From Patescibacteria group bacterium (lineage in GTDB: Bacteria > Patescibacteriota > Patescibacteriia > Patescibacteriales > UBA12465): DNA of 64,000 nt. The stretch spans positions 73,531 to 137,530 of the forward strand of contig JBAYIC010000001.1 in NCBI GenBank assembly GCA_041665845.1, given 5' to 3'. The notes under the pieces were generated by a model. The model was not told the DNA's origin. It saw only the letters and a list, made by a program, of their open reading frames with translations, and searched no databases. The stretch's first letter is position 1. Each line of letters starts with the position of its first letter. A program made the position numbers and the translations under genes. Below are positions 7,707-54,129 of the stretch, piece by piece.

Positions 7707-8249
7707 TCATATTCTACCCTTTTTTTCCAGAAAAAACGGTTTAAATCTTTTAGCTAGTAAGGTCAGGATATTAAAAAACAAAATTGCCGCTAGGATATTC
7801 CAAACTAACTGATAAAATAACGCTTGCCAAAATGAGAAGTTAAATACGCTAAATCCGCTCTGCAAATCAGACGTTAAAAAAGCTAAAATAGCCGCTATTA
7901 AATTATAAACTAAAGTTGAAATCAGAAATAAAACCCCAAAAGAATATAAAGATTTATTAGTTAGCCAATTTTTAGAAATTAAATAAGCTATTAAAGCAAC
8001 CGCTCCTAAAGTAATGAGATAAAAACCAAAAAACTGAAAAGAGAAAATATCCATAAAAAAACCAAAAAAGAAGATAAAAATAATTGTTGATCTAGCCCGA
8101 AAGAAAAACAAAATAAAAATCATTAGTATTACACCAAGATTAATCTGACTAAAAGCTCCCGGCAAAGAACTAATAAAGGAAAACTGCAAAACTGAAATCA
8201 ACAAAGAAAAAAAAATTAAAATAATTATTTGCCCAATTTTATTAAACAT
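7707..8249 (-). CDS. mreD: polytopic membrane protein, MreD-like by position
   Basis: 180 aa, 5-6 predicted TM helices, immediately downstream of mreB-mreC (3-nt gap). The assignment rests mainly on synteny. Confidence 0.55.
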   Translation of the reverse strand: MFNKIGQIIILIFFSLLISVLQFSFISSLPGAFSQINLGVILMIFILFFFRARSTIIFIFFFGFFMDIFSFQFFGFYLITLGAVALIAYLISKNWLTNKSLYSFGVLFLISTLVYNLIAAILAFLTSDLQSGFSVFNFSFWQALFYQLVWNILAAILFFNILTLLAKRFKPFFLEKKGRI

Positions 8250-8252
8250 AGA

Positions 8253-9065
8253 TTAAGGAATAATTATCGAGACGACCGTTAAATCACTGAAATCTATCAG
8301 AGGCTCTATCGTCGCCGATTGCCAAACCTCATTGCTTTCGCTGGTAACATTGGAAACCCGACCAATTATCAGCCCTCGAGGAATACCTCCGCCTAAACCC
8401 GAAGTTACAACCATATTACCAATTGATATTTTCTCTAATTGGGGGATATAGCTCATTTCAATCGTTAAGCCAAGATTACCGTCGGTAATTCCTTTTGTTT
8501 TATCTTCGTTTTGCAAAGAAGCTGCTAATTGGCAACCGGGACTAGTTATTAAACAAACTCTTGAATTAATACTATTTGTTTCTACAATTTTTCCAATAAT
8601 AACACCCTCTTCACTTAAAACGCCTAACTCTGGGCGCAAACCATCTTTTTCTCCTTTATCAATAATAATATCACGGACATCTTTTGATACAGAAAATGAT
8701 TCATCTTTAGCTATTATATTAGCGAGAACTGCTTTAAACTTATTATTAGAAATAAAACCAAGTTGACCACGTAATTTTTTATTTTCTGATTCTATCTCGA
8801 GCCAATGAGAGTTGTTTATAGAGCTTGAAGCTATTTCGTTTTTTAAATAAGCAACCTCGGCCAACAATTCTTCTTTTGTACGGCGCTCATCATAAGCAGA
8901 ACCAAATCCCGTTCCCCATTCATATAATCTAGCACTTAAAGGCTTCATTAAAAACAAAAAAGCTTTTTCTATTGGACGAATAATTCCTATGACATGTAAA
9001 AAAACCAGTAGCCCGAGAACTACCGTAAAAATTAAAAGCGGATTATTTTTTTTGATTTTTATCAT
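8253..9065 (-). CDS. mreC: rod shape-determining protein MreC
   Basis: 270 aa; N-terminal TM anchor, a coiled-coil segment (LLAEVAYLKNEI...ENKKLRGQL), then a beta-rich domain with GLGGGIPRGLIIGRV. It sits directly after mreB. Confidence 0.8.
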   Translation of the reverse strand: MIKIKKNNPLLIFTVVLGLLVFLHVIGIIRPIEKAFLFLMKPLSARLYEWGTGFGSAYDERRTKEELLAEVAYLKNEIASSSINNSHWLEIESENKKLRGQLGFISNNKFKAVLANIIAKDESFSVSKDVRDIIIDKGEKDGLRPELGVLSEEGVIIGKIVETNSINSRVCLITSPGCQLAASLQNEDKTKGITDGNLGLTIEMSYIPQLEKISIGNMVVTSGLGGGIPRGLIIGRVSNVTSESNEVWQSATIEPLIDFSDLTVVSIIIP

Positions 9066-9088
9066 AGATAATTAATCAAACTGTAAGT

Positions 9089-10129
9089 TTAGTCATAACT
9101 TGTAGGTAAAACTACTTTTTCTAGGAGTTCTTTATTACTCAAAAGCAAACCGGTACCCCGAGCAACGCAAGTTAAAGGATCATCGACTATTTTAACCGGA
9201 ATTTTAGAAGCAGCGGAAATCGCCTTATCAAGTCCGCGCAGCAATGCGCCACCACCAGATAAATAAAGCCCTCTCTCATAAATATCAGAAACTAGTTCTG
9301 GTGGAGTCGTTTCTAAAATAGTTTTAATCGTTTCAATAATTTTACCCACCGTACGGCCGATTGCTTCTCTTATCTGTTTATCATTTATCATGATTGCTTT
9401 TGGTAAACCAGTTAAAAGATCACGTCCGCGAACCTCCATTTCTTTTGGTTCTTCCAAAGGAACGGCCGAGCCGATTCCAATTTTAATACTCTCCGCTAAT
9501 TGCTCGCCAATTAAAATATTAAATTCCTCACGAATATATTCAATGATATTACTATCAAATTCGTTCCCCGCCGCTTTTAAAGATTTCCAAGTTACTACTC
9601 CACCTAAAGAAATAACAGCAATTTCGGTAGTCCCGCCGCCAATATCAACAATCATGGTCGCCGTTGCATCGACAACCGGTAGCCTCGCACCAATAGCCGC
9701 GGCCATCGCTTCTTCAATTAAATAAACTTTACGCGCTCCGGCTGATTTAGCCGCATCTTCAACCGCCTTTTTTTCTACTTCAGTCAAATCAAGCGGTATT
9801 CCGATTACGACTCGCGGTCTGGAAATTAAAGCAAAATTATCATTATGGACCTTACTAATAAAATACTTGAGCATTTTTTCTGTTACTTCAAAATCTGAAA
9901 TCACACCATCAACTAAGGGCTTGATAGCTTCAATATGGCCAGGAGTTTTACCAACCATTTTTTTAGCTGCCTCGCCAACTTCTAGAATTTCATTAGTTCT
10001 CTTATTAATAGCAACAACGCTCGGTTCATTAATCACCAAGCCCTTACTGCTAAGATAAACCAAGGTATTTCTAGTACCTAGATCTATACCTAAATCATGA
10101 CTAAATCTTCCTAAAAATTTATTGAACAT
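9089..10129 (-). CDS. mreB: rod shape-determining protein MreB
   Basis: 346 aa; LGIDLGTRNTLVY, VDIGGGTTEIAV and LSGGGALLRGLD are canonical MreB motifs. Confidence 0.92.
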   Translation of the reverse strand: MFNKFLGRFSHDLGIDLGTRNTLVYLSSKGLVINEPSVVAINKRTNEILEVGEAAKKMVGKTPGHIEAIKPLVDGVISDFEVTEKMLKYFISKVHNDNFALISRPRVVIGIPLDLTEVEKKAVEDAAKSAGARKVYLIEEAMAAAIGARLPVVDATATMIVDIGGGTTEIAVISLGGVVTWKSLKAAGNEFDSNIIEYIREEFNILIGEQLAESIKIGIGSAVPLEEPKEMEVRGRDLLTGLPKAIMINDKQIREAIGRTVGKIIETIKTILETTPPELVSDIYERGLYLSGGGALLRGLDKAISAASKIPVKIVDDPLTCVARGTGLLLSNKELLEKVVLPTSYD

Positions 10130-10158
10130 AAAAACTAATTTTTATTGGTATTTTAAGT

Positions 10159-11385
10159 TTAACTCAATTTACTAACAATAGTTTCAGGAGTAATAATTTC
10201 ACTATCTTTTTCGCTTCTCTTTTTCAATTCAAATCCACCAGCTTGAATCGATTTTTTACTTATCACTAAACGATACGGGCAGCCAATTAAATCGGCATCA
10301 GCAAATTTCTCTCCAGCCGATAAATCTCTATCATCATATAAAACCTCTATCTTAGCGCTTAATAAATCTTGATAAACTTTAGTCGCTGTTTCATTTTCAT
10401 TAAGAGATAAAAGATGAACCTTGAAAGGAGCAACAGATTCTGGCCAAATAATACCTTTTTCATCATGGCAAACTTCAACAATAGCCGCCATCGATCTGCT
10501 GAGGCCTAATCCATAACAACCCATGATAACCGTTTTCTTTTCACCATTTTTATCTTGATATTTTAAATCGAATGGTTCTGAATATTTAGTTCCAAGTTTA
10601 AAGATGTTTCCCGCTTCAGTTGCCTTTTCTTCTCTTAAATCTTTACGACCGCATTTTGGGCAAGTATCTTGGTCAGCAATGATTTCTTTATTAACAGCCA
10701 TCTTACAATCATCACAAACATAAATAATATCTTCTCCTGCTTCAATTAGCGTTTGAAATTCATGAGAATATTTAGCAAAACTTCCGCCGGAAGCGTAAGT
10801 AAGGTAGGTTCTATCTCCTAAACCAAAACGATAAAAAATATTATTGTAAGCAACAATTGCTTTTTCATAATAATCATCTAAATCCGTCTGATCAGCATGA
10901 AAAGAATATAAATCTTTCATTAAAAATTCGCGACCGCGTAGTAAACCAGACTTAGCTCTCTTTTCATTACGGAATTTATTTTGAATTTGAAAAACCGCCA
11001 TCGGTAATTCACGGTAGGAATTAATAAATTTTTTAGCGAGCGGAGTAACTACTTCTTCATGAGTAGGATTAAGGGCATATTCTTTTTCGTCAGAACCTGA
11101 TGTTTTAAATAAAACATCGAGCGTATCCCAACGACCAGTGGCTTGCCAATTTTCACGTGGCGCTAAAGAAGGCATATTAATTTCTTGCCCGCCGATAGCG
11201 ACCATCTCCTCACAAATAATCTCTTTAATTTTATTAATAACTTTCCACCCAAGCGGCAAGAAGGAATAAACGCCGGCGGCTGATTTATCAACAAATCCAG
11301 CTCTAATTAGAGCTTGGGCGTTATAGCTAGCTTCATCCTTAGGAAGCTCCTTAACGGTTCTAGTGAAAAGTTGAGATTGTTTCAT
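10159..11385 (-). CDS. proS: prolyl-tRNA synthetase, bacterial-type but lacking the INS editing domain
   Basis: 408 aa. The N-terminus MKQSQLFTRTVKELP..AGFVDKSAAGVYSFLPLG, motif 2 FRNEKRAKSGLLRGREFLMKDLYSFH and motif 3 MGCYGLGLSRSMAAIVE all match. A CxxC...CxxC segment (CDDCKMAV...CPKCG) sits where INS normally is. Confidence 0.85.
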   Translation of the reverse strand: MKQSQLFTRTVKELPKDEASYNAQALIRAGFVDKSAAGVYSFLPLGWKVINKIKEIICEEMVAIGGQEINMPSLAPRENWQATGRWDTLDVLFKTSGSDEKEYALNPTHEEVVTPLAKKFINSYRELPMAVFQIQNKFRNEKRAKSGLLRGREFLMKDLYSFHADQTDLDDYYEKAIVAYNNIFYRFGLGDRTYLTYASGGSFAKYSHEFQTLIEAGEDIIYVCDDCKMAVNKEIIADQDTCPKCGRKDLREEKATEAGNIFKLGTKYSEPFDLKYQDKNGEKKTVIMGCYGLGLSRSMAAIVEVCHDEKGIIWPESVAPFKVHLLSLNENETATKVYQDLLSAKIEVLYDDRDLSAGEKFADADLIGCPYRLVISKKSIQAGGFELKKRSEKDSEIITPETIVSKLS

Positions 11386-11429: not shown

Positions 11430-12008
11430 TCATTTTTGCATGATTTTTAAGGCTTGTTTAACTCTTTCGCCCGTATCTTTCAAAGACGAATCAACGGTCG
11501 ATAAAGCGGCTCTCGCTTCGCTCAGTGAATAGCCAAGAGATATCAGTGCATCCAACTCATCAGAAGATGCTAAAGATGAACCAGCTCTAATATCAGCTAC
11601 CGACGATATTTTTATAATCTTTGTTTTCAGTTCTAAAACTAAACGCTCAGCGGTCTTTTTTCCAATTCCCGAAACTTTAGTCAATAAATCAGCATCGCCC
11701 CTGATAATTGATTCTTTAATATCGCTCGCTGAAGCAATTGCTAAAACTCCTAAAGCTGATTTTGGTCCAACACCAGAAACGCTAATTAATAATTCAAAAA
11801 GATCTAACTCATCTAAACTTTTAAAGCCATAGAGATCGGACGCCTCTTCCCTTACGTGATGGTGAGTAAATACTTCCAACGACGCACCAATAATAATTTC
11901 ATTTAAAAAACTTTCACCGGCAAAAATAGCATAACCAACATCACGAACATCAAGAATAAAATAATTTAACGATTTAGCAATTGTTGTTCCGCGTAAATAT
12001 GAAATCAT
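11430..12008 (-). CDS. ruvA: Holliday junction branch-migration complex subunit RuvA
   Basis: 192 aa; MISYLRGT start and two helix-hairpin-helix motifs (VSGVGPKSALGVL, VSGIGKKTAERLVLELK). Confidence 0.9.
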   Translation of the reverse strand: MISYLRGTTIAKSLNYFILDVRDVGYAIFAGESFLNEIIIGASLEVFTHHHVREEASDLYGFKSLDELDLFELLISVSGVGPKSALGVLAIASASDIKESIIRGDADLLTKVSGIGKKTAERLVLELKTKIIKISSVADIRAGSSLASSDELDALISLGYSLSEARAALSTVDSSLKDTGERVKQALKIMQK

Positions 12009-24246: not shown

Positions 24247-26199
24247 ATGAAAAAAAACACGACGACCGTAAGCTCTCCTGGTTTTTTTTGGAGAAACAAC
24301 CCCAAGCTTAAAAAGCTTGTAGTATTGAACCCTGGCGATTTTCATCGCCCAGAAATAAAAATGCTTTCCCGCTTTAAAGAAAACTGCGGGTTAAATGATT
24401 TCGAAGAGATTAGGGCAAGAAACGAACTCTTGACGTTCATGCAGAATCATCCCGAATTTCGTCTCAAGCTTAATGAGATCATGCCATTGTTAGAAAACAC
24501 CGTTTCTCTTCCTATGTCAGAAAACGATTTTCTTGCATTTTACGAGCAAGATAATGCTTACTGGAAACTAACTGATAGCTTTCTTTCCACCCTTAAACTC
24601 AATGATGACTGTCCACAAAGAGTAAAAGAGTTTATGAACGCTATGGCAGCTGCTAACGGTTTAAGGGTCTATGAAAAAAACATGGCCGAACGTATTTCTG
24701 CAGATTTGAAAAAAGTAACCTTCATGGAGGGCATATTGGAATTTAATCTGCAGAATGAAAAAGAGATTGAACACACAATTATCGGACAACGCGCTTTCAG
24801 TTCTGCTTGGTCGTACAATTACACGGCGCCCATTCCAAAATTCATCAAAAATGGATGGCTGTTTAAAGTATTAGGAATCACTAAATTAATCCAGGTATTA
24901 GCCGACAAAAAAGCAGAGAGAGAATCAAAACGTTCGGCCCTTATTCTGAAAATGCCGGACAAACTAAAAGAGGACATCATCCATGGGATTAACGGACTTA
25001 TCTATCCTGGCTATAAAACAACCGGGATACGATTTAATACCTTGAAATCTGACTCCACTGAAGAAACACACGAGATATTTGATTTTCTGCGCAAAATGCC
25101 AGGGACGGATATATTAGTAAGCTTCAACTATGGAGATTCGGGGCTAAGCATTACACCGCTTAGCATTAAGCTGCACAATATTAAGGATGCTTATCTGCGG
25201 ACTGAGATTGGATATCAATACAAAGGATATACAAATGAAGAGGCAAAATTAATACAGAACCGGCTGGAAGAGGCAAAGACTAAAGCAAATGCGATATCAG
25301 CTATTGAAAAAGCATCAAAAACAATTGCTTTTTTTGCAGAACATCTCGACTTTTGTCTGAGGAGAACTTATAAGATATCTTCCACAGGAACTGATACAGA
25401 GTTTCGTTGGAATTTTCTGAATAATATCTATAATACCGAAGACAATCGGCCTATTTGCAAGGAGTTATTAAGCAACAGAAAATTTTTCTGGGGAATGGTC
25501 TCTGAATTGTATGAAATAAGCAATTTATTGGAGGTTTTTGAAAACCTGGCTAAAGAAAAAAATGTTCCTTTATGTATTCCAAAAATTATGAACGGAAAAA
25601 GCGGAATCACTTTCAAGAATCTTGCTCCTATCGATATGTTCGAGCAAAAAAAGAAAATGTATCCCTTCTCTTTTCCGGAAATAAATGGTCGCATGATTTG
25701 TTTGACAGGTAGGCATGGCCGAGGGAAAAGTGTCGCTGGCAACAGTGTACTTCAAGCTCTCTGGTTGGCTCAATCAGGACTCCCGGTATTTGCGGAATCA
25801 TTTGAATTTGATGTAAAAGATGTAATCGGTGCTGTTACTAATGATACTGGTGATGGCTCCAAGGCTACGGTTTTTGTTAAAAAAACTAAAAACCTATTAC
25901 AAAACATTCAAAAAGTACCAGTAGAAAAATCGCTTATTTTCATTGACGAGATTGGAAATGGTACTCAAGAAGATGCCGGGCTTGAACTCGGTAAATTGAT
26001 TTTGAACACTTTGGCTGACAAGAAATACAGCGTAATTTTCAACACCCAAATTATGGCTCTAGCAGAATACGCTGAAAAAAATCTTGAAGCTAAATGTTTA
26101 AAGGTGGATAAAAACCATCAATTCTCTCCTGGAATCGGTCAAGGTGAAATGACTGAACTCATTAAAGAACTTGGGTTAACCAAGTATTTGAAAAGATGA
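24247..26199 (+). CDS. MutS domain V-like ABC ATPase with an unrecognised N-terminal region
   Basis: 650 aa. The C-terminal ~170 aa carry a Walker A LTGRHGRGKS, a MutS-like LQALWLAQSGLPVFAESFEF, a Walker B LIFIDEIGNGTQEDAG and a terminal F.PG.G.G pattern. No recognisable mismatch-binding domain and no Smr or nuclease tail. Confidence 0.6.
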   Translation: MKKNTTTVSSPGFFWRNNPKLKKLVVLNPGDFHRPEIKMLSRFKENCGLNDFEEIRARNELLTFMQNHPEFRLKLNEIMPLLENTVSLPMSENDFLAFYEQDNAYWKLTDSFLSTLKLNDDCPQRVKEFMNAMAAANGLRVYEKNMAERISADLKKVTFMEGILEFNLQNEKEIEHTIIGQRAFSSAWSYNYTAPIPKFIKNGWLFKVLGITKLIQVLADKKAERESKRSALILKMPDKLKEDIIHGINGLIYPGYKTTGIRFNTLKSDSTEETHEIFDFLRKMPGTDILVSFNYGDSGLSITPLSIKLHNIKDAYLRTEIGYQYKGYTNEEAKLIQNRLEEAKTKANAISAIEKASKTIAFFAEHLDFCLRRTYKISSTGTDTEFRWNFLNNIYNTEDNRPICKELLSNRKFFWGMVSELYEISNLLEVFENLAKEKNVPLCIPKIMNGKSGITFKNLAPIDMFEQKKKMYPFSFPEINGRMICLTGRHGRGKSVAGNSVLQALWLAQSGLPVFAESFEFDVKDVIGAVTNDTGDGSKATVFVKKTKNLLQNIQKVPVEKSLIFIDEIGNGTQEDAGLELGKLILNTLADKKYSVIFNTQIMALAEYAEKNLEAKCLKVDKNHQFSPGIGQGEMTELIKELGLTKYLKR

Positions 26200-31433: not shown

Positions 31434-32516
31434 ATGCAAAAAATTCCTGTAGAACTCCAAAACGATTGGCTTAGCCAATATCTTTTAAGTATGGGGCTAA
31501 TTAGGCTTTCCCAAGGAAAAGTACGCGACACTTGGTCGCTACGCAACCTCTTAGGACATGACAAATTCTTACTGGTTGTCGCTAGCGACAGAATTAGTAT
31601 CTTTGATTATGTATTGAAAGCTCTTGTTCCCCTAAAAGGCGTATCACTTACCGTCTTGACTCATTTTTGGTTGACGGAAGTCTTAAAGGACTTTCCTCAT
31701 CATCTAATTCCGTCCAAAATGAATAAGCAATTTAATTTCGCTTATGATTTAAGAATGGGGTATCTCTCAAAGCTACCAATCGAACGCTGTTTGGTGGTAG
31801 AAAATCTTTCCGGTCAGATGTATCCGGCAGAACTTATTTTCCGTGGTCATGTTGGCGGCTCGATCTGGCCTGGTTATTTAGAGAATGGAATCGTTGCCGG
31901 GCAACAACTACCTCTTGGCTTACAGAAATGGTCTAAATTAGACGAACCAATTTTTACACCTTCCACTAAAGCCGAATTTGGCAACGACATCAACAAAGAT
32001 GTCGACTATTTCTATAATCAGATGAAAAATTTAGGTAAGGAAGACGAAGCTCGTCAAATGGTTAAAGATTTAAAGAGGGCCTATGAAATCGCTTATGCCT
32101 ATGCGCAAAAAAAAGGTATCATAATTTTGGATACCAAGTTTGAAGTTGGAGGTAAATTGGCTGATGAAATCCTTACTCCTGACTCTTCGCGATTTGCCGA
32201 AGAAGAAGATTGGAAACTTGCCATGGAAAAAGGTCGAGATCCAAAATTCTTGGACAAACAGCCGGTACGTGATTGGGGCGCAACTGTCCTTACTCCCTTC
32301 CTTGATGATAATTGTCAACCAATAATTGGTATCAACAAGTTAAAATCCGAGAATCCAGAGTACGAACAATACATTGAGTTTGTTCAAAATCTGGAAATAC
32401 CTGATTGGGTAATTTCAGAGGCCGCAGAAAGATACCCGAGAATCTGTAAAATGATTACCGGCTACGACCTGGATGATTATTTGAAAAATTGCATGGGAGC
32501 CGAACTTCGTGCTTAA
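31434..32516 (+). CDS. purC: SAICAR synthetase (PurC), long form
   Basis: 360 aa; GKVRDTW, LLVVASDRISIFDYVL and IILDTKFEVG are PurC motifs. Confidence 0.85.
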   Translation: MQKIPVELQNDWLSQYLLSMGLIRLSQGKVRDTWSLRNLLGHDKFLLVVASDRISIFDYVLKALVPLKGVSLTVLTHFWLTEVLKDFPHHLIPSKMNKQFNFAYDLRMGYLSKLPIERCLVVENLSGQMYPAELIFRGHVGGSIWPGYLENGIVAGQQLPLGLQKWSKLDEPIFTPSTKAEFGNDINKDVDYFYNQMKNLGKEDEARQMVKDLKRAYEIAYAYAQKKGIIILDTKFEVGGKLADEILTPDSSRFAEEEDWKLAMEKGRDPKFLDKQPVRDWGATVLTPFLDDNCQPIIGINKLKSENPEYEQYIEFVQNLEIPDWVISEAAERYPRICKMITGYDLDDYLKNCMGAELRA

Positions 32517-32537
32517 ATTTAAACCTAAATTTGTAAA

Positions 32538-33071
32538 ATGAAAAGAAAAATGGCAATTATCGTCGGATCGATAAGTGATTTATCGCAATCCGATAAGGGA
32601 TTTAAATTCCTCAACACCGTCCAAGACAAAGTTGATGTAATCGGTGTATACGTTAGGAGCCAACATCGCAACACTCTTGATGTCCAAAAACTATTGAAGG
32701 AATTAGTCCAGAAAAAAGTTGATGTTATTATTATGGGCGCTGGTTGGGCCAACCACTTAACCGGTTGTGGCGATGCATTTTTAAGATACACTTTACTCGA
32801 TGATAGAATTGTCGTGATCGGTGTCGCGTTTGAGGATGCGGGAAATCCAATGCACACCGAAGCGGCATTACTCTCTATCACCGAAGTCCCGGGGACTCAG
32901 GTGGTTTTTCAAAACGAAAATGGACCTTTTAAAGGCCGCGAAGGTTTTTTTCAAGCATGCAAAGTAGCGACTGAAAAAGAGCTGCCGAAAATAAAACTTC
33001 CTGAACCTAAACCCACAAGGGACTTAAGTCTGCAGGAAGCGTTGGAAGTAGCCTCAGCACTGAACAGTTAA
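32538..33071 (+). CDS. purE: PurE-like (AIR carboxylase/N5-CAIR mutase family), divergent
   Basis: 177 aa; MAIIVGSISD, VRSQHRNT (cf. SAHRTP) and IIMGAGWANHLTG (cf. AGGAAHLPG). The motifs are divergent and no purK is adjacent. Confidence 0.6.
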   Translation: MKRKMAIIVGSISDLSQSDKGFKFLNTVQDKVDVIGVYVRSQHRNTLDVQKLLKELVQKKVDVIIMGAGWANHLTGCGDAFLRYTLLDDRIVVIGVAFEDAGNPMHTEAALLSITEVPGTQVVFQNENGPFKGREGFFQACKVATEKELPKIKLPEPKPTRDLSLQEALEVASALNS

Positions 33072-35957: not shown

Positions 35958-36082
35958 AAACCTGTTTATTTTTGCGGGATTTAAATTCTAAATTACACTT
36001 TAGCATTAAATTAACAAAAAATACATAATTTAGGCAACAAATATTGCCTTAAAGCCTATCTTAGCCTATGATATGGCTAGAT

Positions 36083-37855
36083 ATGTCTATCCTTTTACAA
36101 GTAAACAATTTGAGTAAAGAATATAGCGGCCAAAAAATTTTTTCTGACCTCTCTTTTGTTATTTCCGAAAAACAAAAAATAGGCGTGATCGGAAAAAATG
36201 GTGCCGGTAAGTCCACACTATTTCGCATTCTAACCGGCGAAGAAAGTACTGATAGCGGCGAAATAATAATTCACGAAGATACTAGTATTGGATACCTAAA
36301 ACAAAATAACGATTGGGAAGAAGACGAAAGTGCTCTTGGTTATTTAGTTCGTCAAAGTGGCCGTCCAGAGTGGAGAGCGCAACAAGTCGCTAGTAAATTT
36401 GAACTCGACGCTAATAAACTAAAACAAAATGCTAGCAGTCTTTCCGGTGGTTGGCGGATGCGTTTGCGCCTAACCGGGATGCTTCTAAAAGAACCCAATC
36501 TATTTTTACTTGACGAACCAAGTAATTATTTAGATTTAAATACTTTAATCTTACTAGAAAATTATCTCAGCGCTTATCGGGGAAGTTTTTTAATTATTTC
36601 TCATGACCGTGAATTTCTCAAGCGCACTTGCCAAGAAACTATAGAAATTTCTAAAACTGGTTGTTATCATTACCCAGGAAATATTGAAGCCTATCTCGCT
36701 TTTAAAGAGCAAAAACTAAGCACTCTTATTAAAGCTAATGAAAGCTTAGAAAGACAACAACAACATTGGCAAGAATTTGTCGATCGTTTTCGTTATAAAG
36801 CTTCTAAAGCAAAACAAGCTCAAGCCGTCGTGCGCAAAATAAGTAAATTAGAAGAAAAAAGAATCACTATTGAGCATGAAGCCGGAATAAATAGAATAAC
36901 TATCCCCGCGGTTCCTAAAAAAAATAACTTTGCTTTAAAAATAAATAATTTAGATATTGGGTACGAGAATAACGTCGTAGTTGCGGGTATAGATTTCGAT
37001 TGTCGCTCGGGAGAAAAATTAGCGATTCTTGGCCTAAATGGCCAAGGTAAAACTACTTTAATTAAAACTATAACCGGCCGCATTCCCGCACTTGGCGGAT
37101 CATTTCGCTTCGCCGCTAATACCCATCTAGTCTATCATGGGCAAGAAGAAATGGATGCTATGAACGAGCAAGAACAAGCCGGTGATTTCATCCGCCGCGT
37201 TGCTTCATCGGATTTAAAAACTGAAGCTGTCTTAAAAATGGCCGGAGACTTCCTATTTCGAGAAGAAGAACTCAAAAAGCCGATTTCTGTTTTATCAGGC
37301 GGCGAGAGATCTCGCCTTCTTTTAGCGGGGCTATTACTTTCTAAACCGGATATCTTAGTTTTAGATGAACCGACTTGTCATCTTGATTTTGAAACTACCG
37401 AGGCGTTAGCAATTGCTTTACAGAAATTTTCCGGAACTGTATTTTTTGCAAGTCATGATAGAACATTTTCTAGCTTGGTAGCAACCGGAATCGTGGAAAT
37501 AAAAAATGGCCAAGCTAAGCGTTGCCATGAAGAATATAATGAATATGTCACTAAATTAGAAAAACAATTATGGAAAAAAGCGGAAGAGGAAGAAAAATCT
37601 GCTCCATCTGAAAATAAATCGCTTGATAGAGAGCACTACTTAGAAAATAAAGCGAGACAAAAAAAGATCTTATCTCTTGAGAGAGAATTAGAAAAAATGC
37701 AGACTTACAAGCAGGAACTAATGGAATATTTTTTAGAACATTACAGCGACTACAAATCAGAAAAAGTTCAAGAGTTAGAAGATATTAAAAGATTAATCGA
37801 AGATAAAGAGGAAAGATGGCTAGCTTTAAGCGAAGAGAATAATGTTAAATCCTAA
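36083..37855 (+). CDS. ABC-F family ATPase (two ABC domains, no TMD)
   Basis: ORF track starts at ATG 36068; the ATG at 36083 (MSILLQVNNLSKEY) fits ABC-F N-termini. Walker A GKNGAGKST and GLNGQGKTT, signatures LSGGWRMRL and LSGGERSRL, and a C-terminal coiled-coil extension. Confidence 0.9.
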   Translation: MSILLQVNNLSKEYSGQKIFSDLSFVISEKQKIGVIGKNGAGKSTLFRILTGEESTDSGEIIIHEDTSIGYLKQNNDWEEDESALGYLVRQSGRPEWRAQQVASKFELDANKLKQNASSLSGGWRMRLRLTGMLLKEPNLFLLDEPSNYLDLNTLILLENYLSAYRGSFLIISHDREFLKRTCQETIEISKTGCYHYPGNIEAYLAFKEQKLSTLIKANESLERQQQHWQEFVDRFRYKASKAKQAQAVVRKISKLEEKRITIEHEAGINRITIPAVPKKNNFALKINNLDIGYENNVVVAGIDFDCRSGEKLAILGLNGQGKTTLIKTITGRIPALGGSFRFAANTHLVYHGQEEMDAMNEQEQAGDFIRRVASSDLKTEAVLKMAGDFLFREEELKKPISVLSGGERSRLLLAGLLLSKPDILVLDEPTCHLDFETTEALAIALQKFSGTVFFASHDRTFSSLVATGIVEIKNGQAKRCHEEYNEYVTKLEKQLWKKAEEEEKSAPSENKSLDREHYLENKARQKKILSLERELEKMQTYKQELMEYFLEHYSDYKSEKVQELEDIKRLIEDKEERWLALSEENNVKS

Positions 37856-49095: not shown

Positions 49096-49107
49096 AAGAA
49101 TTAAATA

Positions 49108-49212
49108 TTAAAAAGACAAAAGAAGAATAATCACTATCGTTAAGGCAAGAAGCCCGATAGCAAACATTTGAGCTAGACCAATTCCAATTTTTTTAGGATT
49201 AATTATCGCCAT
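49108..49212 (-). CDS. possible 34-aa single-TM peptide
   Basis: ATG..TAA ORF MAIINPKKIGIGLAQMFAIGLLALTIVIILLLSF between tRNA-Tyr and mutM. It is hydrophobic but has no homology support. Confidence 0.25.
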   Translation of the reverse strand: MAIINPKKIGIGLAQMFAIGLLALTIVIILLLSF

Positions 49213-49228
49213 AAATGTAATATAAGTG

Positions 49229-49312
49229 TGGGCCGAGAAGGATTCGAACCTTCGAAGGCACAAGGCCAGCAGATTTACAGTCTGCCCCAGTTGACCGCTT
49301 TGGTATCGACCC
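49229..49312 (-). tRNA. tRNA-Tyr (anticodon GTA), class II with long variable arm
   Basis: Hand-folded: acceptor GGGTCGA/TCGGCCC, anticodon arm GCAGA-CTGTAAA-TCTGC, long variable arm, T arm GAAGG-TTCGAAT-CCTTC, discriminator A. Confidence 0.85.
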
Positions 49313-49364
49313 GTTTACTTGTATATCGTAAAAAGATTAGCCAGGGCAAATCAATTACTGTTTA

Positions 49365-49393
49365 ATAATAGATAAATTATTTTTTCTTGTCAA
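49365..49393 (-). promoter_or_regulatory. candidate promoter for tRNA-Tyr
   Basis: On the minus strand: TTGACA (49393..49388), 17-nt spacer, TATTAT (49370..49365), about 50 nt upstream of the tRNA. Confidence 0.55.
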
Positions 49394-49418
49394 ACCAGAA
49401 AAATATCGAAGTAGAGCG

Positions 49419-49784
49419 TTATTTTTTGATACCTTCAATTACTACTCTAACTAAGCCATAGGCGGAAAATATAACGACTAGGCCAATTGCTGACCAAACA
49501 ATAATATCTCTTCCCTTCTTTACTTTTTCCTGATTACCGGAAGAGGTCATCCAAGTTATACCGCCGAAAACAAACATCAAAAGCGCGATGGAACCGACTA
49601 CGCCAAGAACAGAATTAATAACTTGACCGATTAATTCTTGCGGCGTGTTAACATTAAGTGGGTTTGAGATACAATTTGGGCTATCGGCCGGACAGCCTTC
49701 AGCGCCATCAGCCAAGACTGGAATTGCAACAAAAATGGTGAAGATAAATAGACTTAGAAAAACGAAAGATATTATTTTTTTCAT
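49419..49784 (-). CDS. TrbC/VirB2-like (type IV secretion-type) pilin family protein
   Basis: ORF track starts at TTG 49802; the ATG at 49784 gives a signal peptide (MKKIISFVFLSLFIFTIFVAIPVLA). The mature part has two hydrophobic helices separated by a basic loop (GSIALLMFVFGGITWMTSSGNQEKVKKGRDIIVWSAIGLVVIFSAYGLV), the VirB2/TrbC topology. Confidence 0.6.
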   Translation of the reverse strand: MKKIISFVFLSLFIFTIFVAIPVLADGAEGCPADSPNCISNPLNVNTPQELIGQVINSVLGVVGSIALLMFVFGGITWMTSSGNQEKVKKGRDIIVWSAIGLVVIFSAYGLVRVVIEGIKK

Positions 49785-49820
49785 ATTTTTATTCTTACTC
49801 AAATAATAACATTTTTGAAC

Positions 49821-49861
49821 AAAAAAAAGAAGGGGTTGCGATTTTTTATCACTTCCCCCTC
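49821..49861 (-). terminator. intrinsic terminator after the 260-aa gene
   Basis: On the minus-strand RNA: GAGGGGG-19 nt loop-CCCCUUC (one G-U pair) followed by UUUUUUUU. Confidence 0.5.
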
Positions 49862-49873
49862 AAAAATATCTAT

Positions 49874-50656
49874 TTAATTAACAACCATTCTTACGGTCGT
49901 TAATTGATTAGACGCTAGTTCAAACCTTGGGTTTTCCTTGTTAGGAAAAACCACTTGCATATTTGGCGCATCATGCGTCGGGGCAGTACCATCAGCCCAG
50001 ACAATATCGTAACCATTCCCGGTTTGTGATGCAAGTGCATACTTGCGACAAGTTTGGTCACTTCTTACATTAATGATAAACGGTGTTTTACCATTTATAT
50101 TAATAAAGTAAATGCCCTTCGTAAAAATTGAGTCTTTACTACTTTGGGTTGGAGGTACTACAACTGGTGGTTGCACGGGTGGTTGCTGAATTACAACTGG
50201 TTCTTCAGGATAATAAAGATTGTCAATTGAATCCAATAACCTTTTGGCTTTTTCAACCTTTCCAGCTTTTAGTAAATCGGTGTATTGACCGAGTAGGGCA
50301 TCTTTTTTGTAATTTTTAACGCCCTCTAAGATCAAATCGGCTTTAACCTGAACCGAATCAACCTTTTGGCCAATGAACAAATCAGAACTCAAGTTTCCCC
50401 AAGAAACCTTAGAAGCGGTAATTGGGAAAAAACTGGTAAAGAGCGCCCAGCCAATAATAGCTACAGCCGGAACATAAAGCCACTGGCTGGTTTGCTCAGC
50501 AATCCAGCAAAAAATGACCGCTAAAGCAACTGCCCAGAAACTCCAGGCGAAAGCCAGATGGCAAATCAAACCGATACCAAAAGCGAGGATCGGCAGTTTC
50601 CAGAACTTCAGTGTTGCGAGGGTTCTTACCTTCGCTTCTATTTCTTCTTTTTTCAT
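49874..50656 (-). CDS. hypothetical membrane protein (3 TM + Pro-rich linker + beta-rich C-terminal domain)
   Basis: 260 aa; I recognise no family. TM helices lie in residues ~20-85, the linker is PVVIQQPPVQPPVVVPP, and G+C is elevated. Confidence 0.6.
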   Translation of the reverse strand: MKKEEIEAKVRTLATLKFWKLPILAFGIGLICHLAFAWSFWAVALAVIFCWIAEQTSQWLYVPAVAIIGWALFTSFFPITASKVSWGNLSSDLFIGQKVDSVQVKADLILEGVKNYKKDALLGQYTDLLKAGKVEKAKRLLDSIDNLYYPEEPVVIQQPPVQPPVVVPPTQSSKDSIFTKGIYFININGKTPFIINVRSDQTCRKYALASQTGNGYDIVWADGTAPTHDAPNMQVVFPNKENPRFELASNQLTTVRMVVN

Positions 50657-50680
50657 TTCTCTTTTTTTGTTTTTTTGTTT

Positions 50681-51910
50681 TTACTTAAACATTGCCCGGA
50701 AAATTGCGGGCACGAATTCAACTACGGCATCAGAAACTAGATGCACTGGAAATTCGCTCCACATTGGACCTTTACGGGTCGGTGCGGGAGTAGAGGAATC
50801 AGTAGATGTAACGACTGGTTCTTTGTGTCTAGCAACCGCATAGGCGCCAGACCAAGCAACCAGTTTTTCAAACCAGGGGTCACCCGCCTGAACATAATCA
50901 CGGTCTCGAAGTCTTTCAACAACGAGACCAAATTCTTCAGCGATTTCCTCCCTTAACGAAAGTGGTCCATAAATAAGGAAAATCAGCGTTAAAATAAAAG
51001 CTGCTTTCCAAATCCAGTGATGCCAGTGCCCCGAAACTTCGGTCGGCCGAATTGGATGGGTTTGTTCCGGAAAGGCTTGTTCCATAACCTGATTGTAAAC
51101 GAGCTCCTGTTTAGAGAAGCCATCGTCATTTCTGAACCAGTTTTGGTGGAACAATGGTTGCCCCACTCCAATGCAAATTGCCCATACCCAGAAGACTGCG
51201 GCCGTGCACATTAATAAGAATGCCCGTCCGTTATTGGTTTTGAAAAACCAAGCGGCGCTAAATTTTTTGCGCCTTTTCCCTCTGCGCTTTGGTCTGGTGA
51301 TTCGAATACGAGCGTGGTCTTCAATTCCGCTCACGATTGCTTGTAAAGGCAGATCAGCACCAGGGGCAATAACTCCGGGAACGATGAATTCACCAATGCC
51401 GCGCTTGTCGGTTTTAACGACGTACTTGGTATTGTTGAAAATTACATCCACGTTAAGCAACAGCCCGTAACCATGGGCCTTAATAACCCGAATAAATACC
51501 TTAAAGTGTCCTTTTCCATCACTTGTACGAATCAAAATGATTTTTTGAGGGTCACTTTTAATTGCACCAGCAACGGGAGCTGCCTTTTCCGGAATTTCTA
51601 CCTCTACATAACCTTTTTCCGTCGAGTCCTTCAAAAAAACCTCGAAAGAAAAGATTTGTTTTTTTGCGGTTTGAACGTAAGGAACTTTATGTTCCAGAAA
51701 TCCAATTGCATCCGTATCAGTCGCCAGAACTTGTTTATGGTTCTGGAAAATGATAACTCCGAGCGCACAAGGGGTCGAATCTTTGCTGGTTCTAATGCGA
51801 ATGTTGATGTGCGTGTCATCAACAAACGACGTCACATCCAAACCGAATTTCGGAGTGGACGGTTTTACTACTGGTTTTGGGGCTCCTGCGCCCGCGCCTG
51901 CTACTGCCAT
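50681..51910 (-). CDS. hypothetical membrane protein (two beta-rich N-terminal repeats, polybasic stretch, 2 TM)
   Basis: 409 aa; I recognise no family. AAGGAG lies 7 nt before the ATG. RPKRRGKRRKK precedes TM1. G+C is clearly elevated, which produces many shadow ORFs in the track. Confidence 0.65.
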   Translation of the reverse strand: MAVAGAGAGAPKPVVKPSTPKFGLDVTSFVDDTHINIRIRTSKDSTPCALGVIIFQNHKQVLATDTDAIGFLEHKVPYVQTAKKQIFSFEVFLKDSTEKGYVEVEIPEKAAPVAGAIKSDPQKIILIRTSDGKGHFKVFIRVIKAHGYGLLLNVDVIFNNTKYVVKTDKRGIGEFIVPGVIAPGADLPLQAIVSGIEDHARIRITRPKRRGKRRKKFSAAWFFKTNNGRAFLLMCTAAVFWVWAICIGVGQPLFHQNWFRNDDGFSKQELVYNQVMEQAFPEQTHPIRPTEVSGHWHHWIWKAAFILTLIFLIYGPLSLREEIAEEFGLVVERLRDRDYVQAGDPWFEKLVAWSGAYAVARHKEPVVTSTDSSTPAPTRKGPMWSEFPVHLVSDAVVEFVPAIFRAMFK

Positions 51911-52002
51911 GTTTTTTCTCCTTTTTAGTTTATGTTTTTACTTGTATTTACTTGTTAATGAACAATGTTTGCTATATACTCCTAGCTCTCATTGTTAAGA
52001 AC

Positions 52003-52031
52003 ATTATAGCATAGTTTTACGATTTTGTCAA
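52003..52031 (-). promoter_or_regulatory. perfect consensus sigma70 promoter for the 409-aa/260-aa cassette
   Basis: On the minus strand: TTGACA (52031..52026), exactly 17 nt, TATAAT (52008..52003), about 90 nt upstream of ATG 51910. Confidence 0.7.
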
Positions 52032-52060
52032 TATAAAAGCCCAGCGATTGCTACTGGGCT
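52032..52060 (-). terminator. intrinsic terminator after the 331-aa gene
   Basis: On the minus strand: AGCCCAG-tagcaatcg-CTGGGCT followed by TTTTATATT. It abuts the -35 of the next promoter. Confidence 0.75.
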
Positions 52061-52120
52061 TAGAAAAAGAGTAAATATACCAAATTTTTGACTAATAATA
52101 AACAAAATAAAATAAAGGAA

Positions 52121-53116
52121 CTATTCAAATTGACATTTTATACTATCAAGTTGCTTATAAATTCTATATACATCATTATCTTTTGAATAGGCACATAAAC
52201 CATCTTTTAAATAAACAGATAAACCATCTTTCGGGTAAATTTTTAATAAATAAGAATCATTTAAATAATATGTCTGACCATTTATAACTGCCCTTGCATC
52301 CGATCCACATCCGCGAATAAACCCGGCATAATAATTAAAGCTTAATCTAAGACTTTTTCCGTCAATATTTAAAAAACCAAATACATGTTCACCTTCCAAT
52401 AGTTTAATGATAACGCTATCGCCCGAAATCATTTTCTTAATTAGTAAATCATCTGTATGACGATTTAAACGCTCAGATATGCACAAGAATAATGTCTCTC
52501 TTGTATTGTTAGTAAATTTTACAGAATAAACAGCGGCTTCTATTTCTAGTCCAGATAAACTCGACTCATTAGGTTTAGCATTTTTGGCCAATCCTGATTG
52601 AGTCATATATTTAAGCACAACTTCTTTATTTATCTCCTTCAGCTCATCCCCTGTCATTGGATCATAACCTTCCGAAGAATAAAATCTGTATTCCCCGTTT
52701 GGAGAAATTGAATAATACTTCATTGGTTTTCCCGTATCAGGATTAAAAAAAACATTTTGCGAAGAAAAATAAGAAGCAACACAGAGCGCTGCAAAAACAA
52801 CTATAACAGATACTCTCTTTATTTTTTTATTCTTCTGAGGAACAGGAAAAAAAGATAATATAAATCCGCCAATCGGCAGAAGTAAAATTCCGGCTAATAA
52901 AAAAGCGCTTATTCCTTTAGCGAGTAACATGTCGAAACCTGTGTAGGCTCTAACATGATTTTCCAACCAACCAAAAGCTTGAAGCAAAAAAATAATATTA
53001 CCGGTTGCTAAGAGGATTAAGAAGATAACAATAAACACAAAGATAATTAAGATTTGCCTAAATACTTTAGAAAAATCAAACTTACCATTTTCCAAGAAAT
53101 GCCTTATTTGTTTCAT
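52121..53116 (-). CDS. hypothetical membrane protein
   Basis: 331 aa; 3-4 N-terminal TM helices, then a ~200-aa soluble domain. Very AT-rich; I recognise no family. Confidence 0.6.
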   Translation of the reverse strand: MKQIRHFLENGKFDFSKVFRQILIIFVFIVIFLILLATGNIIFLLQAFGWLENHVRAYTGFDMLLAKGISAFLLAGILLLPIGGFILSFFPVPQKNKKIKRVSVIVVFAALCVASYFSSQNVFFNPDTGKPMKYYSISPNGEYRFYSSEGYDPMTGDELKEINKEVVLKYMTQSGLAKNAKPNESSLSGLEIEAAVYSVKFTNNTRETLFLCISERLNRHTDDLLIKKMISGDSVIIKLLEGEHVFGFLNIDGKSLRLSFNYYAGFIRGCGSDARAVINGQTYYLNDSYLLKIYPKDGLSVYLKDGLCAYSKDNDVYRIYKQLDSIKCQFE

Positions 53117-53231
53117 GAGTTATTTATTTTAAATGGTTATTTTTTAACGTACATAAATTCTCAATATATTAAGACAATATGGCTAAATTGTCAAACAAAA
53201 AAACAACCCCATTAAGGGTCGCCTTTCTCTG

Positions 53232-53304
53232 AGCCGTTGACCGGGATTGAACCGGTGACCTTCTCCTTACCATGGAGATGCTCTACCAGCTGAGCTACAA
53301 CGGC
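53232..53304 (-). tRNA. tRNA-Thr (anticodon GGT)
   Basis: Hand-folded with all stems perfect: GCCGTTG/CAACGGC, GCTC/GAGC, TCTCC-ATGGTAA-GGAGA, ACCGG-TTCAATC-CCGGT; 73 nt. Confidence 0.9.
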
Positions 53305-53310
53305 GAATTT

Positions 53311-54129
53311 TTACAAATTTTCTTCAAGAGCTTCAATTTCTTTCTTAATCTCTTCTAACTTCTGATTTTCTGGGTTAGCAATTGCTAATTTCTCAAAATA
53401 TCTAATAGCTAAATCTTTATCTTTCCTCATTATACTTAAATCCAAAATTAAATCAAGATAACGCGGACTATTTGGTTCAAATTCTAAGGCCTCGGAAACA
53501 TTATCAAAAGCAGCTTCAAAATTTCCCGCTTCTTTTTCTAACCAAGCAAGCGAAAAATATATTTCCTGAATACTCAAATCGCCTAAAATCTCCTTATCAT
53601 CTCGATATTGCTTCGCAAGCCTTAGGGTATACTCGTAAGTTTGACGTGCCTCCGGATATTTTTTCAATTTTTCATAAATACTTCCTAGCTTAAAAAAAGC
53701 GCCTAAATTTTTCTGATCAAGACTTATTATTTCCACTAATTTTTCTTCCGCTTCATTAAAATTTTCTTTCTTAACTGAATCTTCGACCGTAAACAGTAAG
53801 TCTTTAATTCTTTTTTGTTTTTCTGGCCAAGGGATTTTAGCTTCTATTTTATAACTAAGCTTTATCTTCTTTAAATTATTCTGAGCGCCTTTTAGAACCT
53901 TGGCAATATTTGAATTAACTACCAAAAAAACTCTTCCAAAAAATCCGCTCCATTTAGCAAGATCTCTTTCTACTCGCGCTTTAATTATCATATTCTTAAA
54001 TTTCGATTCCTTTTCGCCCGGCATATTATTTACATCCAAAATTGCTAGAGCCGGTAGCTTCTTAACAATAATAGCAAAAATTACTGCTAAACAAATGAGT
54101 ATTAAAACAATAGAAATTATAGTAAGCAT
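53311..54129 (-). CDS. membrane-anchored TPR-repeat protein
   Basis: 272 aa; N-terminal TM helix, then 3-4 TPR-like repeats (e.g. GAFFKLGSIYEKLKKYPEARQTYEYTLRL, YFSLAWLEKEAGNFEAAFDNVSEALEFEP). Confidence 0.7.
   Translation of the reverse strand: MLTIISIVLILICLAVIFAIIVKKLPALAILDVNNMPGEKESKFKNMIIKARVERDLAKWSGFFGRVFLVVNSNIAKVLKGAQNNLKKIKLSYKIEAKIPWPEKQKRIKDLLFTVEDSVKKENFNEAEEKLVEIISLDQKNLGAFFKLGSIYEKLKKYPEARQTYEYTLRLAKQYRDDKEILGDLSIQEIYFSLAWLEKEAGNFEAAFDNVSEALEFEPNSPRYLDLILDLSIMRKDKDLAIRYFEKLAIANPENQKLEEIKKEIEALEENL

Follow-up and report, generated by a model that had tools for sequence, protein, structure and literature searches.

Inner-membrane proteins encoded near a pilin gene, such as TraQ and TraX of the F plasmid and TraF of RP4, act on the membrane pool of VirB2/TraA-type pilin. 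Among the mRNAs of abundant envelope proteins, those of E. coli ompA and of the Lactobacillus S-layer gene slpA have strong promoters and 5'-terminal stabilising stem-loops. Here we describe a locus that recalls both systems, a two-gene unit with an adjacent pilin gene in a 64-kb stretch (the window) of the core chromosome of a metagenome-assembled genome from the Patescibacteria (Candidate Phyla Radiation, CPR), with an overall GC content of 36.0 %. The two open reading frames (ORFs), gene 1 (409 aa, 50681..51910) and gene 2 (260 aa, 49874..50656), are co-directional and separated by 24 nt; NCBI lists their products under WCT50_00705 and WCT50_00700, with 'Patescibacteria group bacterium' as the source, and places them on a contig of 206,756 bp. 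The VirB2-like pilin gene (49419..49784) encodes 121 aa from the ATG at 49784, while the listed 127-aa ORF starts at a TTG at 49802. All window features are on the minus strand unless stated otherwise.

Like TraQ, TraX and TraF, the products of this locus form a small set of membrane proteins encoded beside a pilin gene, but they have no sequence or fold similarity to those proteins; instead, tandem Ig-like domains and a beta-sandwich on a proline-rich linker are predicted, and the genes carry signals of very high expression. The locus shares with ompA and slpA a consensus promoter, a long leader that opens with a hairpin, a strong Shine–Dalgarno sequence and a gene for an envelope protein. 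In contrast to those systems, the products are predicted integral membrane proteins without signal peptides, neither porins nor S-layer proteins, and a stabilising role of the hairpin is putative here.

VirB2-like pilins occur widely among Patescibacteria and are essential in the Saccharimonadia, the only lineage in which this was tested; they were found in 1,948 VirB4-containing assemblies, often as arrays, chromosomal and with no known function (Quinonero-Coronel et al. 2025, PMC12102498). That survey works relative to virB4 and names no partners resembling gene 1 or gene 2, and full-text literature (searched by pilin family name or accession, and for abundant CPR proteins) gave no description of the two families. 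Compared with that survey's type IV secretion system (T4SS) pilin loci (PMC12102498), our locus is similar in that the adjacent 121-aa gene is a clear family member, and a pilin array at one related locus (L020, see below) also fits. It differs in having no VirB4, VirB6, VirB3 or TrsD within the 64-kb window, and in that the partners belong to two families without a profile in Pfam, NCBIfam, PHROGs or PADLOC.

We conclude with high confidence that genes 1 and 2 are a vertically inherited core operon of two novel membrane-protein families, strongly expressed as far as can be inferred, and with moderate confidence that its products work in an abundant complex of the envelope together with the VirB2-like pilin encoded next to them. 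For the full explanation, in which an ancestral, highly expressed operon encodes an envelope module that is the partner of the pilin, we estimate a probability of about one half.

The inheritance of the locus was followed in its relatives. A profile search of the full database with the gene-1 family returned 252 cluster representatives, 82 of them below 1e-30. The homologues collected (28 of gene 1 and 12 of gene 2) were all unannotated proteins of Patescibacteria or of metagenome contigs without classification; another profile search, this time word-indexed, gave no new ones, and two distant or short homologues lay on contigs of about 1 kb, whose context was uninformative. In 12 distinct related contigs, from Falkowbacteria and other Patescibacteria, the 409-aa gene, the 260-aa gene and the T4SS_pilin gene follow one another at one and the same site, flanked by tRNA-Thr and tRNA-Tyr. 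The upstream order is epimerase, TIM, TPR protein, tRNA-Thr, a variable slot, the promoter and gene 1; downstream, gene 1 is followed by gene 2, a terminator, the pilin gene, tRNA-Tyr, (a small gene), Fpg, an AI-2E transporter, rubrerythrin and tRNA-Trp. The trio with these same neighbours was seen in the related loci that we number L001, L003, L005, L007, L008, L009 and L022, and the arrangement is found on contigs of 959 kb and 881 kb, on the 977-kb Falkowbacteria chromosome record CP066698.1 (L007) and on several shorter contigs. It was the same at every related locus for which the flanking sequence sufficed. The trio was also present in loci L011–L015 and L017 of the genome collection (L016 is too short and holds gene 1 only); in this GTDB-based collection, gene 1 was detected in twelve species genomes, and a local hidden Markov model (HMM) search placed gene 2 and the pilin gene alongside it wherever the contig is long enough.

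In the window, the downstream landmark is tRNA-Tyr(GTA) (49228..49312), whose position is shared with L001, L003, L005, L007, L008 and L009, and the upstream one is tRNA-Thr(GGT) (53231..53304), just after the TPR gene, shared with L003, L005, L007 and L009. Since the same tRNA genes flank the trio across relatives, they are conserved synteny landmarks and not the borders of an island. No presence/absence polymorphism of the cassette was seen among related loci with enough sequence. The identity of the trio to the window decays in step with that of the housekeeping neighbours Fpg, AI-2E and TIM: in the nearest genome, gene 1, gene 2 and pilin are 61, 56 and 75 % identical, against 73, 72 and 64 % for Fpg, AI-2E and TIM, and in a more distant genome the values are 48, 34 and 51 % against 49, 63 and 50 %.

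The expression signals of the operon are equally well preserved. A sigma-70-type promoter with 12 of 12 consensus positions lies at 52003..52031 (TTGACA at 52031–52026, a 17-nt spacer, TATAAT at 52008–52003), and a TG at 52011–52010 makes it an extended −10 promoter of the form TTGACA-17-TGnTATAAT. It is the sole perfect TTGACA-17-TATAAT in the 64-kb window, where 100 shuffles gave an expectation of 0.00. A perfect promoter stands 5' of the gene-1 orthologue in 10 distinct loci, nearly always with the TGn element, and in each relative locus (13–17 kb) it is usually the only perfect match; near-perfect versions were found in L009 (TAGTAT), L015 (TATGAT), L025 (TTGACT/TATAGT) and the more distant L020 (TTGACT/TAGTAT). 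Three perfect promoters were noticed in L022 (7660–7688 on the minus strand, 7813–7841 and 11873–11901 on the plus strand). One of them is divergent from the cassette promoter, and another precedes a 179-aa gene without known function that lies 3' of tRNA-Tyr in several relatives and is absent from the window.

The −35 hexamer is directly abutted by a hairpin resembling an intrinsic terminator (52037..52061), with a 9-bp stem containing five GC pairs and a T-rich tail, which ends the preceding 331-aa gene. Between the −10 hexamer and the ATG of gene 1 there is a leader of 92 nt (51911..52002) with a two-tier stem-loop, a TAAAC(C/T)AAA motif and the Shine–Dalgarno sequence AAGGAG (51923–51918), the last seven nt ahead of the ATG. 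The stem-loop (51996–51961; −9.8 kcal/mol, z −2.5) begins 7 nt past the −10 hexamer. In relatives the leader spans 45–159 nt, and in most of the close ones a two-tier hairpin starts 6–8 nt past the −10 hexamer, approximately at the 5' end of the transcript. The hairpin sequences vary between subgroups and their modest z-scores give support only sequence by sequence, a joint alignment of eleven leaders gave no consensus structure, and Rfam had no family in the leader or intergenic regions. In view of the modest z-scores and the missing joint structure we do not claim a conserved RNA element, and a function of the 5' hairpin as an mRNA stabiliser is only plausible.

Some further features of the leaders were seen in relatives. 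In many of them AATGAG(A/T)A and GGCAA recur near the 5' end and TAAAC(C/T)AAA recurs 15–25 nt ahead of the start codon, and several have no recognisable Shine–Dalgarno sequence. Two leaders are longer, 159 nt in L022 (7842–8000) and 125 nt in L025 (7876–8000); both have a GC-rich hairpin and then a U-run downstream of the promoter, an attenuator-like arrangement, while the window leader has no such U-run.

At its other end the operon is closed by an intrinsic terminator (49821..49861), a two-tier GC-rich hairpin (49861–49829) followed by T8 (49828–49821). Each of the 14 other loci examined likewise has a strong hairpin with a U-run that separates gene 2 from the pilin gene. The pilin gene is preceded by an extended −10 promoter-like element, TGtTATTAT (49803..49811), with a putative promoter function, and an element of the TGnTATAAT type stood at the equivalent position in every locus examined. 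The conservation of both terminator and pilin promoter indicates that the two-gene unit is insulated and under selection, the pilin gene being a separate unit. An earlier note on this DNA had described two co-directional ORFs of 409 and 260 aa with a 24-nt gap, a perfect promoter, a leader of about 90 nt with AAGGAG, terminators on both sides, flanking tRNA-Tyr and tRNA-Thr genes and a VirB2-like pilin as neighbour, and had taken the pair for an insulated unit of membrane proteins of no known family; our analysis bears this description out in each respect. The note's view that the unit is strongly expressed also agrees with our results, as all the signals point that way and are conserved across relatives.

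Codon usage is a second line of evidence that points to high expression. The GC content of gene 1 is 45.9 % (0.459), the highest of the 57 ORFs in the window (z about +3.2), and its third-position value (GC3) is 42.2 %, about 3 standard deviations (sd) above the mean; gene 2 has 41.3 % (0.413, z about +1.7) and the 331-aa gene 0.315, compared with a gene mean in the window of 0.359 (sd 0.031). The earlier note was right that GC is elevated, but its hand counts overstated the contrast, the values for whole genes being 45.9, 41.3 and 31.5 %. From amino-acid composition and background codon usage, a GC content of 0.410 is predicted for gene 1, against a gene mean of 0.360, and the difference between observed and expected GC (+0.050, z about 3) comes from codon choice; half of the GC excess is due to amino-acid composition and half to codon choice. 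Plus-strand shadow ORFs at 50.5–52.0 kb were considered as genes and rejected, being an expected by-product of fewer stop codons in GC-richer DNA.

The shift is specific for certain codons. Gene 1 prefers TTC (0.45 against a background fraction of 0.16), TAC (0.50/0.17), CAC (0.47/0.16), AAC (0.41/0.21), GAC (0.34/0.14) and ACC (0.49/0.21), avoids ATA (0.04 vs 0.22) and TTA (0.21 vs 0.47), and uses GAA/GAG and CAA/CAG in unchanged proportions. In two-fold NNY codons (those ending in C or T) the C fraction is 0.50 in gene 1, 0.33 in gene 2 and 0.23 in the pilin gene; in 48 same-strand genes it is 0.151±0.056, with a maximum of 0.318. This comparison was kept within one strand because third-position C is higher on the plus strand, which fits the strong negative GC skew that this strand has over the whole window; the few plus-strand genes at 24247–26199, 31434–33071 and 36068–37855 have third-position C markedly above that of minus-strand genes. 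The NNY C fraction of the gene-1 orthologue exceeds that of all same-strand neighbours in L001, L003, L005, L007, L022 and L025, and the GC elevation is repeated in orthologues (in L001, for example, 49.3 % vs 35.5 %). As the bias is kept across orthologues that are 37–52 % identical, it is hardly residual foreign composition; the preference for C-ending codons looks like selection linked to high expression. A consensus promoter, a strong ribosome-binding site and a distinct codon bias, the combination expected of a highly expressed gene, are thus all found here, and these signals are kept in orthologues.

The assignment of the neighbouring pilin is secure. It matched the T4SS_pilin profile PF18895 with E 1.7e-14 and 54.1 bits (Pfam gathering cut-off 26.6), TrbC with E 7.6e-07 and 29.7 bits (cut-off 27.9) and the pilin-like profile NF045849 with E 6e-10. 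Its sequence and the alignment of orthologues show a signal peptide, a pair of cysteines and an NPL motif, and a hairpin of two hydrophobic helices whose short connecting loop is basic.

The proposed tie of genes 1 and 2 to this pilin comes from the persistence of the trio in loci where the surrounding synteny is lost. In L025, a distant relative (profile E 2.5e-35), genes for 417 aa and 255 aa and a pilin follow one another in an entirely different neighbourhood. L021 has a 331-aa form with one Ig domain, a 259-aa protein of the same architecture as gene 2 and then a pilin gene; upstream of this gene-1 homologue, at about 5680–5790, a run of N (masked or unresolved bases) interrupts a GC-rich stretch encoding Pro/Thr repeats, and its start and promoter are unreadable. 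In L020, genes for 430 aa and 286 aa adjoin five pilin-like genes arranged as an array. At these distant loci the gene-2 proteins are too divergent to have been detected with the first HMM, but they align with the same architecture and motifs, and were recovered by a broader profile. In addition, a minus-strand region of L025 (1839–3322) contains a second pilin gene and, preceding it, the gene for a 346-aa protein. With hhalign, the C-terminal part of this protein was matched to the profile of the gene-2 family at a probability of 88 % (E 3e-6), which suggests that the pairing of a beta-domain protein with a pilin recurs. As the order of the trio outlives synteny and a gene-2-like beta domain stands at a second pilin gene, a role as partner of the pilin is the most likely one. 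The L020 array itself (7835–11151, minus strand) is directly downstream of the pair; several of its members are extended at the N-terminus by long stretches rich in Cys or Ser, and a member of 267 aa contains two pilin modules in tandem.

The product of gene 1 was modelled with AlphaFold (predicted local distance difference test score, pLDDT, 77). The model predicts a disordered N-terminus, two Ig-like beta-sandwiches (about 22–106 and 123–205), a polybasic stretch and a first transmembrane helix (TM1, about 226–249), then a Trp/His-rich loop of about 50 aa, TM2 (about 295–318) and an acidic helical region, and at the C-terminus a disordered Ser/Thr-rich stretch and an amphipathic helix. In an alignment of 27 homologues the acidic helical region contains an invariant R320-E321-E322 and a DxxxxxxGDP motif, and a TNNGR motif is also conserved. 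There is no signal peptide. Family-wide, the net charge before TM1 is +4, and from the charge distribution the Ig-like domains are predicted to be cytoplasmic, which is unusual. Foldseek searches of PDB and BFVD returned only generic tandem Ig-like or MG domains. The family ranges from short forms with the membrane module only to proteins of up to 660 aa with extra N-terminal Ig-like domains, and its profile reaches giant Big_3_5/Big_13/CarboxypepD_reg repeat proteins, although the window protein itself gave no hit to these Pfam models at E≤1. Among known systems, its predicted tandem Ig-like sandwich comes closest to the Big_3_5, Big_13 and CarboxypepD_reg families and the folds of complement MG and SiiE BIg domains; it differs from bacterial Ig-like families in having no signal peptide and in the cytoplasmic placement that its charge predicts.

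For gene 2 (AlphaFold, pLDDT 70), the prediction runs from a basic N-terminus through three TM helices to a conserved VDSVQVKADLILE helix and a helical hairpin, then to a Pro-rich linker and a beta-sandwich of about 85 aa, which is predicted to face outward. The alignment revealed a conserved motif, VDSVQVKAD. Foldseek (PDB, BFVD) gave only weak matches to CBM_E1/cupin-like folds, with E about 0.02. Neither gene 1 nor gene 2 had anything significant in Pfam, NCBIfam, PHROGs or PADLOC, and when profiles of both families were searched against PDB sequences, only a marginal match to a collagen-adhesin Ig domain was obtained (E 0.005). The protein features that had been read from the sequence earlier agree with the AlphaFold models, hydropathy and charge counts, the beta domains of gene 1 measuring about 85 aa.

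Several observations weigh against the pilin-partner reading. No VirB4-sized ATPase or T4SS channel protein was found by Pfam in the 64-kb window (52 of the 57 ORFs were scanned, including all of at least 590 aa), and the Pfam matches of the scanned ORFs were to housekeeping genes. No homology of gene 1 or gene 2 to T4SS subunits or to characterised pilin accessory factors was detected in Pfam, NCBIfam, PHROGs or PDB sequences. A terminator and its own promoter appear to separate the pilin gene from gene 2, and the three genes are then not one transcript. The number of Ig domains among gene-1 homologues varies from one to about four, as is typical of surface proteins; Ig-like domains being usually extracellular and this copy number variable, the cytoplasmic placement is an uneasy one. 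Finally, the case for high expression is made from sequence signals alone, and the genes for enolase, PGK, TIM and MreB in the window have ordinary GC3, so translational selection is not general and the codon shift could have another cause.

Some of these points would fit equally well with abundant envelope or membrane-scaffold proteins that have nothing to do with the pilin, for example a membrane skeleton with a cell-wall tether, whose position next to the pilin would be due solely to conserved gene order and to a high level of expression common to all three. Separate transcription units and a window without T4SS machinery are what this alternative would lead one to expect; pilin-like genes of relatives also adjoin unrelated genes such as glycoside hydrolases, and a Pro-rich linker with a small CBM-like beta domain resembles wall-spanning tethers. 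It accounts poorly for the gene 1 – gene 2 – pilin order being kept in L025 and L021, where all other synteny is lost, for the gene-2-like protein in front of the second pilin in L025 and for the pair abutting the pilin array in L020. We give it an appreciable probability, though a lower one than a pilin partnership.

Dedicated factors for pilin maturation or insertion, comparable to TraQ, TraX or TraF and acting on the VirB2-like propilin as catalysts or chaperones and not as structural components, would also be expected to be encoded in tight linkage with the pilin, and such a task would suit two integral membrane proteins whose motifs are strongly conserved (TNNGR, REE and GDP in gene 1, VDSVQVKAD in gene 2). 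A maximal promoter, a strong ribosome-binding site and codon bias of the expression type suggest stoichiometric amounts instead, the variation in Ig-domain number speaks for a structural or spacer function, and there is no similarity to TraQ, TraX or TraF or to peptidase or acyltransferase families; this explanation seems quite unlikely.

The earlier note had proposed that the pair is a horizontally acquired membrane cassette in a tRNA-bracketed segment, its foreign origin being visible in GC. We consider this very improbable. It is true that none of the 57 ORFs in the window exceeds gene 1 in GC or GC3, that tRNA genes flank the segment and that the slot beside tRNA-Thr differs between genomes, and in its flanking tRNAs, atypical composition and adjoining variable slot the locus resembles tRNA-associated genomic islands. 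Unlike such islands, it has no integrase, no direct repeats and no polymorphism of the cassette. As the note had itself reported, the interval contains no integrase or recombinase (Pfam, PHROGs and NCBIfam searches of its four ORFs) and no tRNA-derived direct repeats (49100–53400, where only low-complexity A/T repeats were present). In every related contig whose flanks are long enough, the trio occupies the same site between the same tRNAs, its identity falls in step with that of its housekeeping neighbours, and the GC and codon shift recurs in orthologues down to 37 % identity, which DNA that has yet to ameliorate would hardly show. A check of GC and codon usage, of the kind that the note had suggested, does find atypical composition, but one that consists of NNC over NNT and of amino-acid content and recurs in orthologues, a pattern that speaks for selection more than for a foreign origin. 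The note had also set its idea against a pair that is conserved at the locus and belongs to a known family; the pair is conserved at the locus in this lineage and has no known family. An origin from a phage or a defence system was rejected, as the two proteins had no significant PHROG or PADLOC match and are surrounded, in stable synteny, by housekeeping genes of the core.

According to the pilin-partner explanation that we favour, the two genes would be an ancestral chromosomal operon, vertically inherited in a lineage of ultra-small Patescibacteria (CPR) that includes Candidatus Falkowbacteria. A maximal-strength sigma-70 promoter would drive a bicistronic mRNA with a 5'-proximal stem-loop and a strong ribosome-binding site, ending at the intrinsic terminator, and the pilin gene downstream would use its own extended −10 promoter. 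The high G+C content would result in part from proteins richer in Ala, Gly, Pro, Val, Thr and Arg, and for the rest from C-ending codons favoured by selection for very high expression. Both products would be abundant integral membrane proteins. The two Ig-like domains of gene 1 and its acidic helical domain would be cytoplasmic; a two-helix hairpin would anchor them, and its external loop, which is conserved, is of aromatic/His type. Gene 2 would expose a small beta-sandwich on the outside of the cell, tethered by the proline-rich linker. The pair may then serve the VirB2-like pilin in the envelope as a stoichiometric partner, platform or anchor complex. Of this picture, the analysis shows the conservation, the synteny, the expression signals, the codon pattern and the fold classes; the high expression, the membrane topology and a physical or functional coupling to the pilin are inferred.

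The tRNA-bracketed interval contains only four ORFs (331, 409, 260 and 127 aa), and the only variable one is the gene for a 331-aa membrane protein (52121..53116; GC 31.5 %) in the slot between tRNA-Thr and the cassette promoter. It had no homologue in any related locus, and its product had no family match in Pfam, PHROGs, NCBIfam or PADLOC. The gene has a promoter-like site of its own (53194–53166, 10 of 12 consensus positions) and a 24-nt tandem repeat (52178–52225) that encodes KDGLSVYL/KDGLCAYS. In other genomes the slot next to tRNA-Thr is occupied by one or two opposite-strand genes of about 145 aa, an ABC ATPase or a secretin-containing block. The soluble proteins of about 145 aa, divergent and of unassigned family, are encoded by one or two genes upstream of the promoter in most relatives (opposite strand; L001 6850–7745, L003 7265–7702, L005 6859–7751, L009 7028–7776), and tblastn found no trace of them in the window. 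In CP066698.1 (L007, 1863–5755) tRNA-Thr is followed by a block of four genes, among them one for a homologue of secretin (PF00263), an unusual finding in a lineage that is generally regarded as having no outer membrane. Elsewhere, the window encodes MreB (two copies), MreC, SecA, IleRS, ribonucleotide reductase, PurL, enolase, PGK, TIM and rubrerythrin; part of this gene content was assigned from synteny with relatives and the remainder from Pfam scans. The two MreB paralogues and MreC lie inside 7 kb of a reduced genome (3358–4380, 8253–9065 and 9089–10129).

The locus carries a caution for the reading of AT-rich reduced genomes, in which a sharp GC peak flanked by tRNA genes can be a conserved, highly expressed core operon and not an island. 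What VirB2-like pilins build, and with which partners, is not known, though they are widespread and sometimes essential in Patescibacteria (PMC12102498). Here, two families travel with one highly conserved pilin orthologue under the strongest possible expression signals, with no secretion ATPase in the window, and if the coupling is real, these two uncharacterised membrane families are candidate pilin partners. A bolder proposal, which we consider unlikely, is that the trio forms a self-contained and very abundant pilin-based envelope or host-contact structure of one Patescibacteria branch, in which a cytoplasmic Ig-domain scaffold (gene 1) and an outward-facing, tethered beta-sandwich (gene 2) would organise or anchor the pilin independently or upstream of the VirB4 machine. 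If true, pilins would here be handled by a complex of a new type, which would offer a first way into the function of the many orphan VirB2-like pilins found in CPR bacteria.

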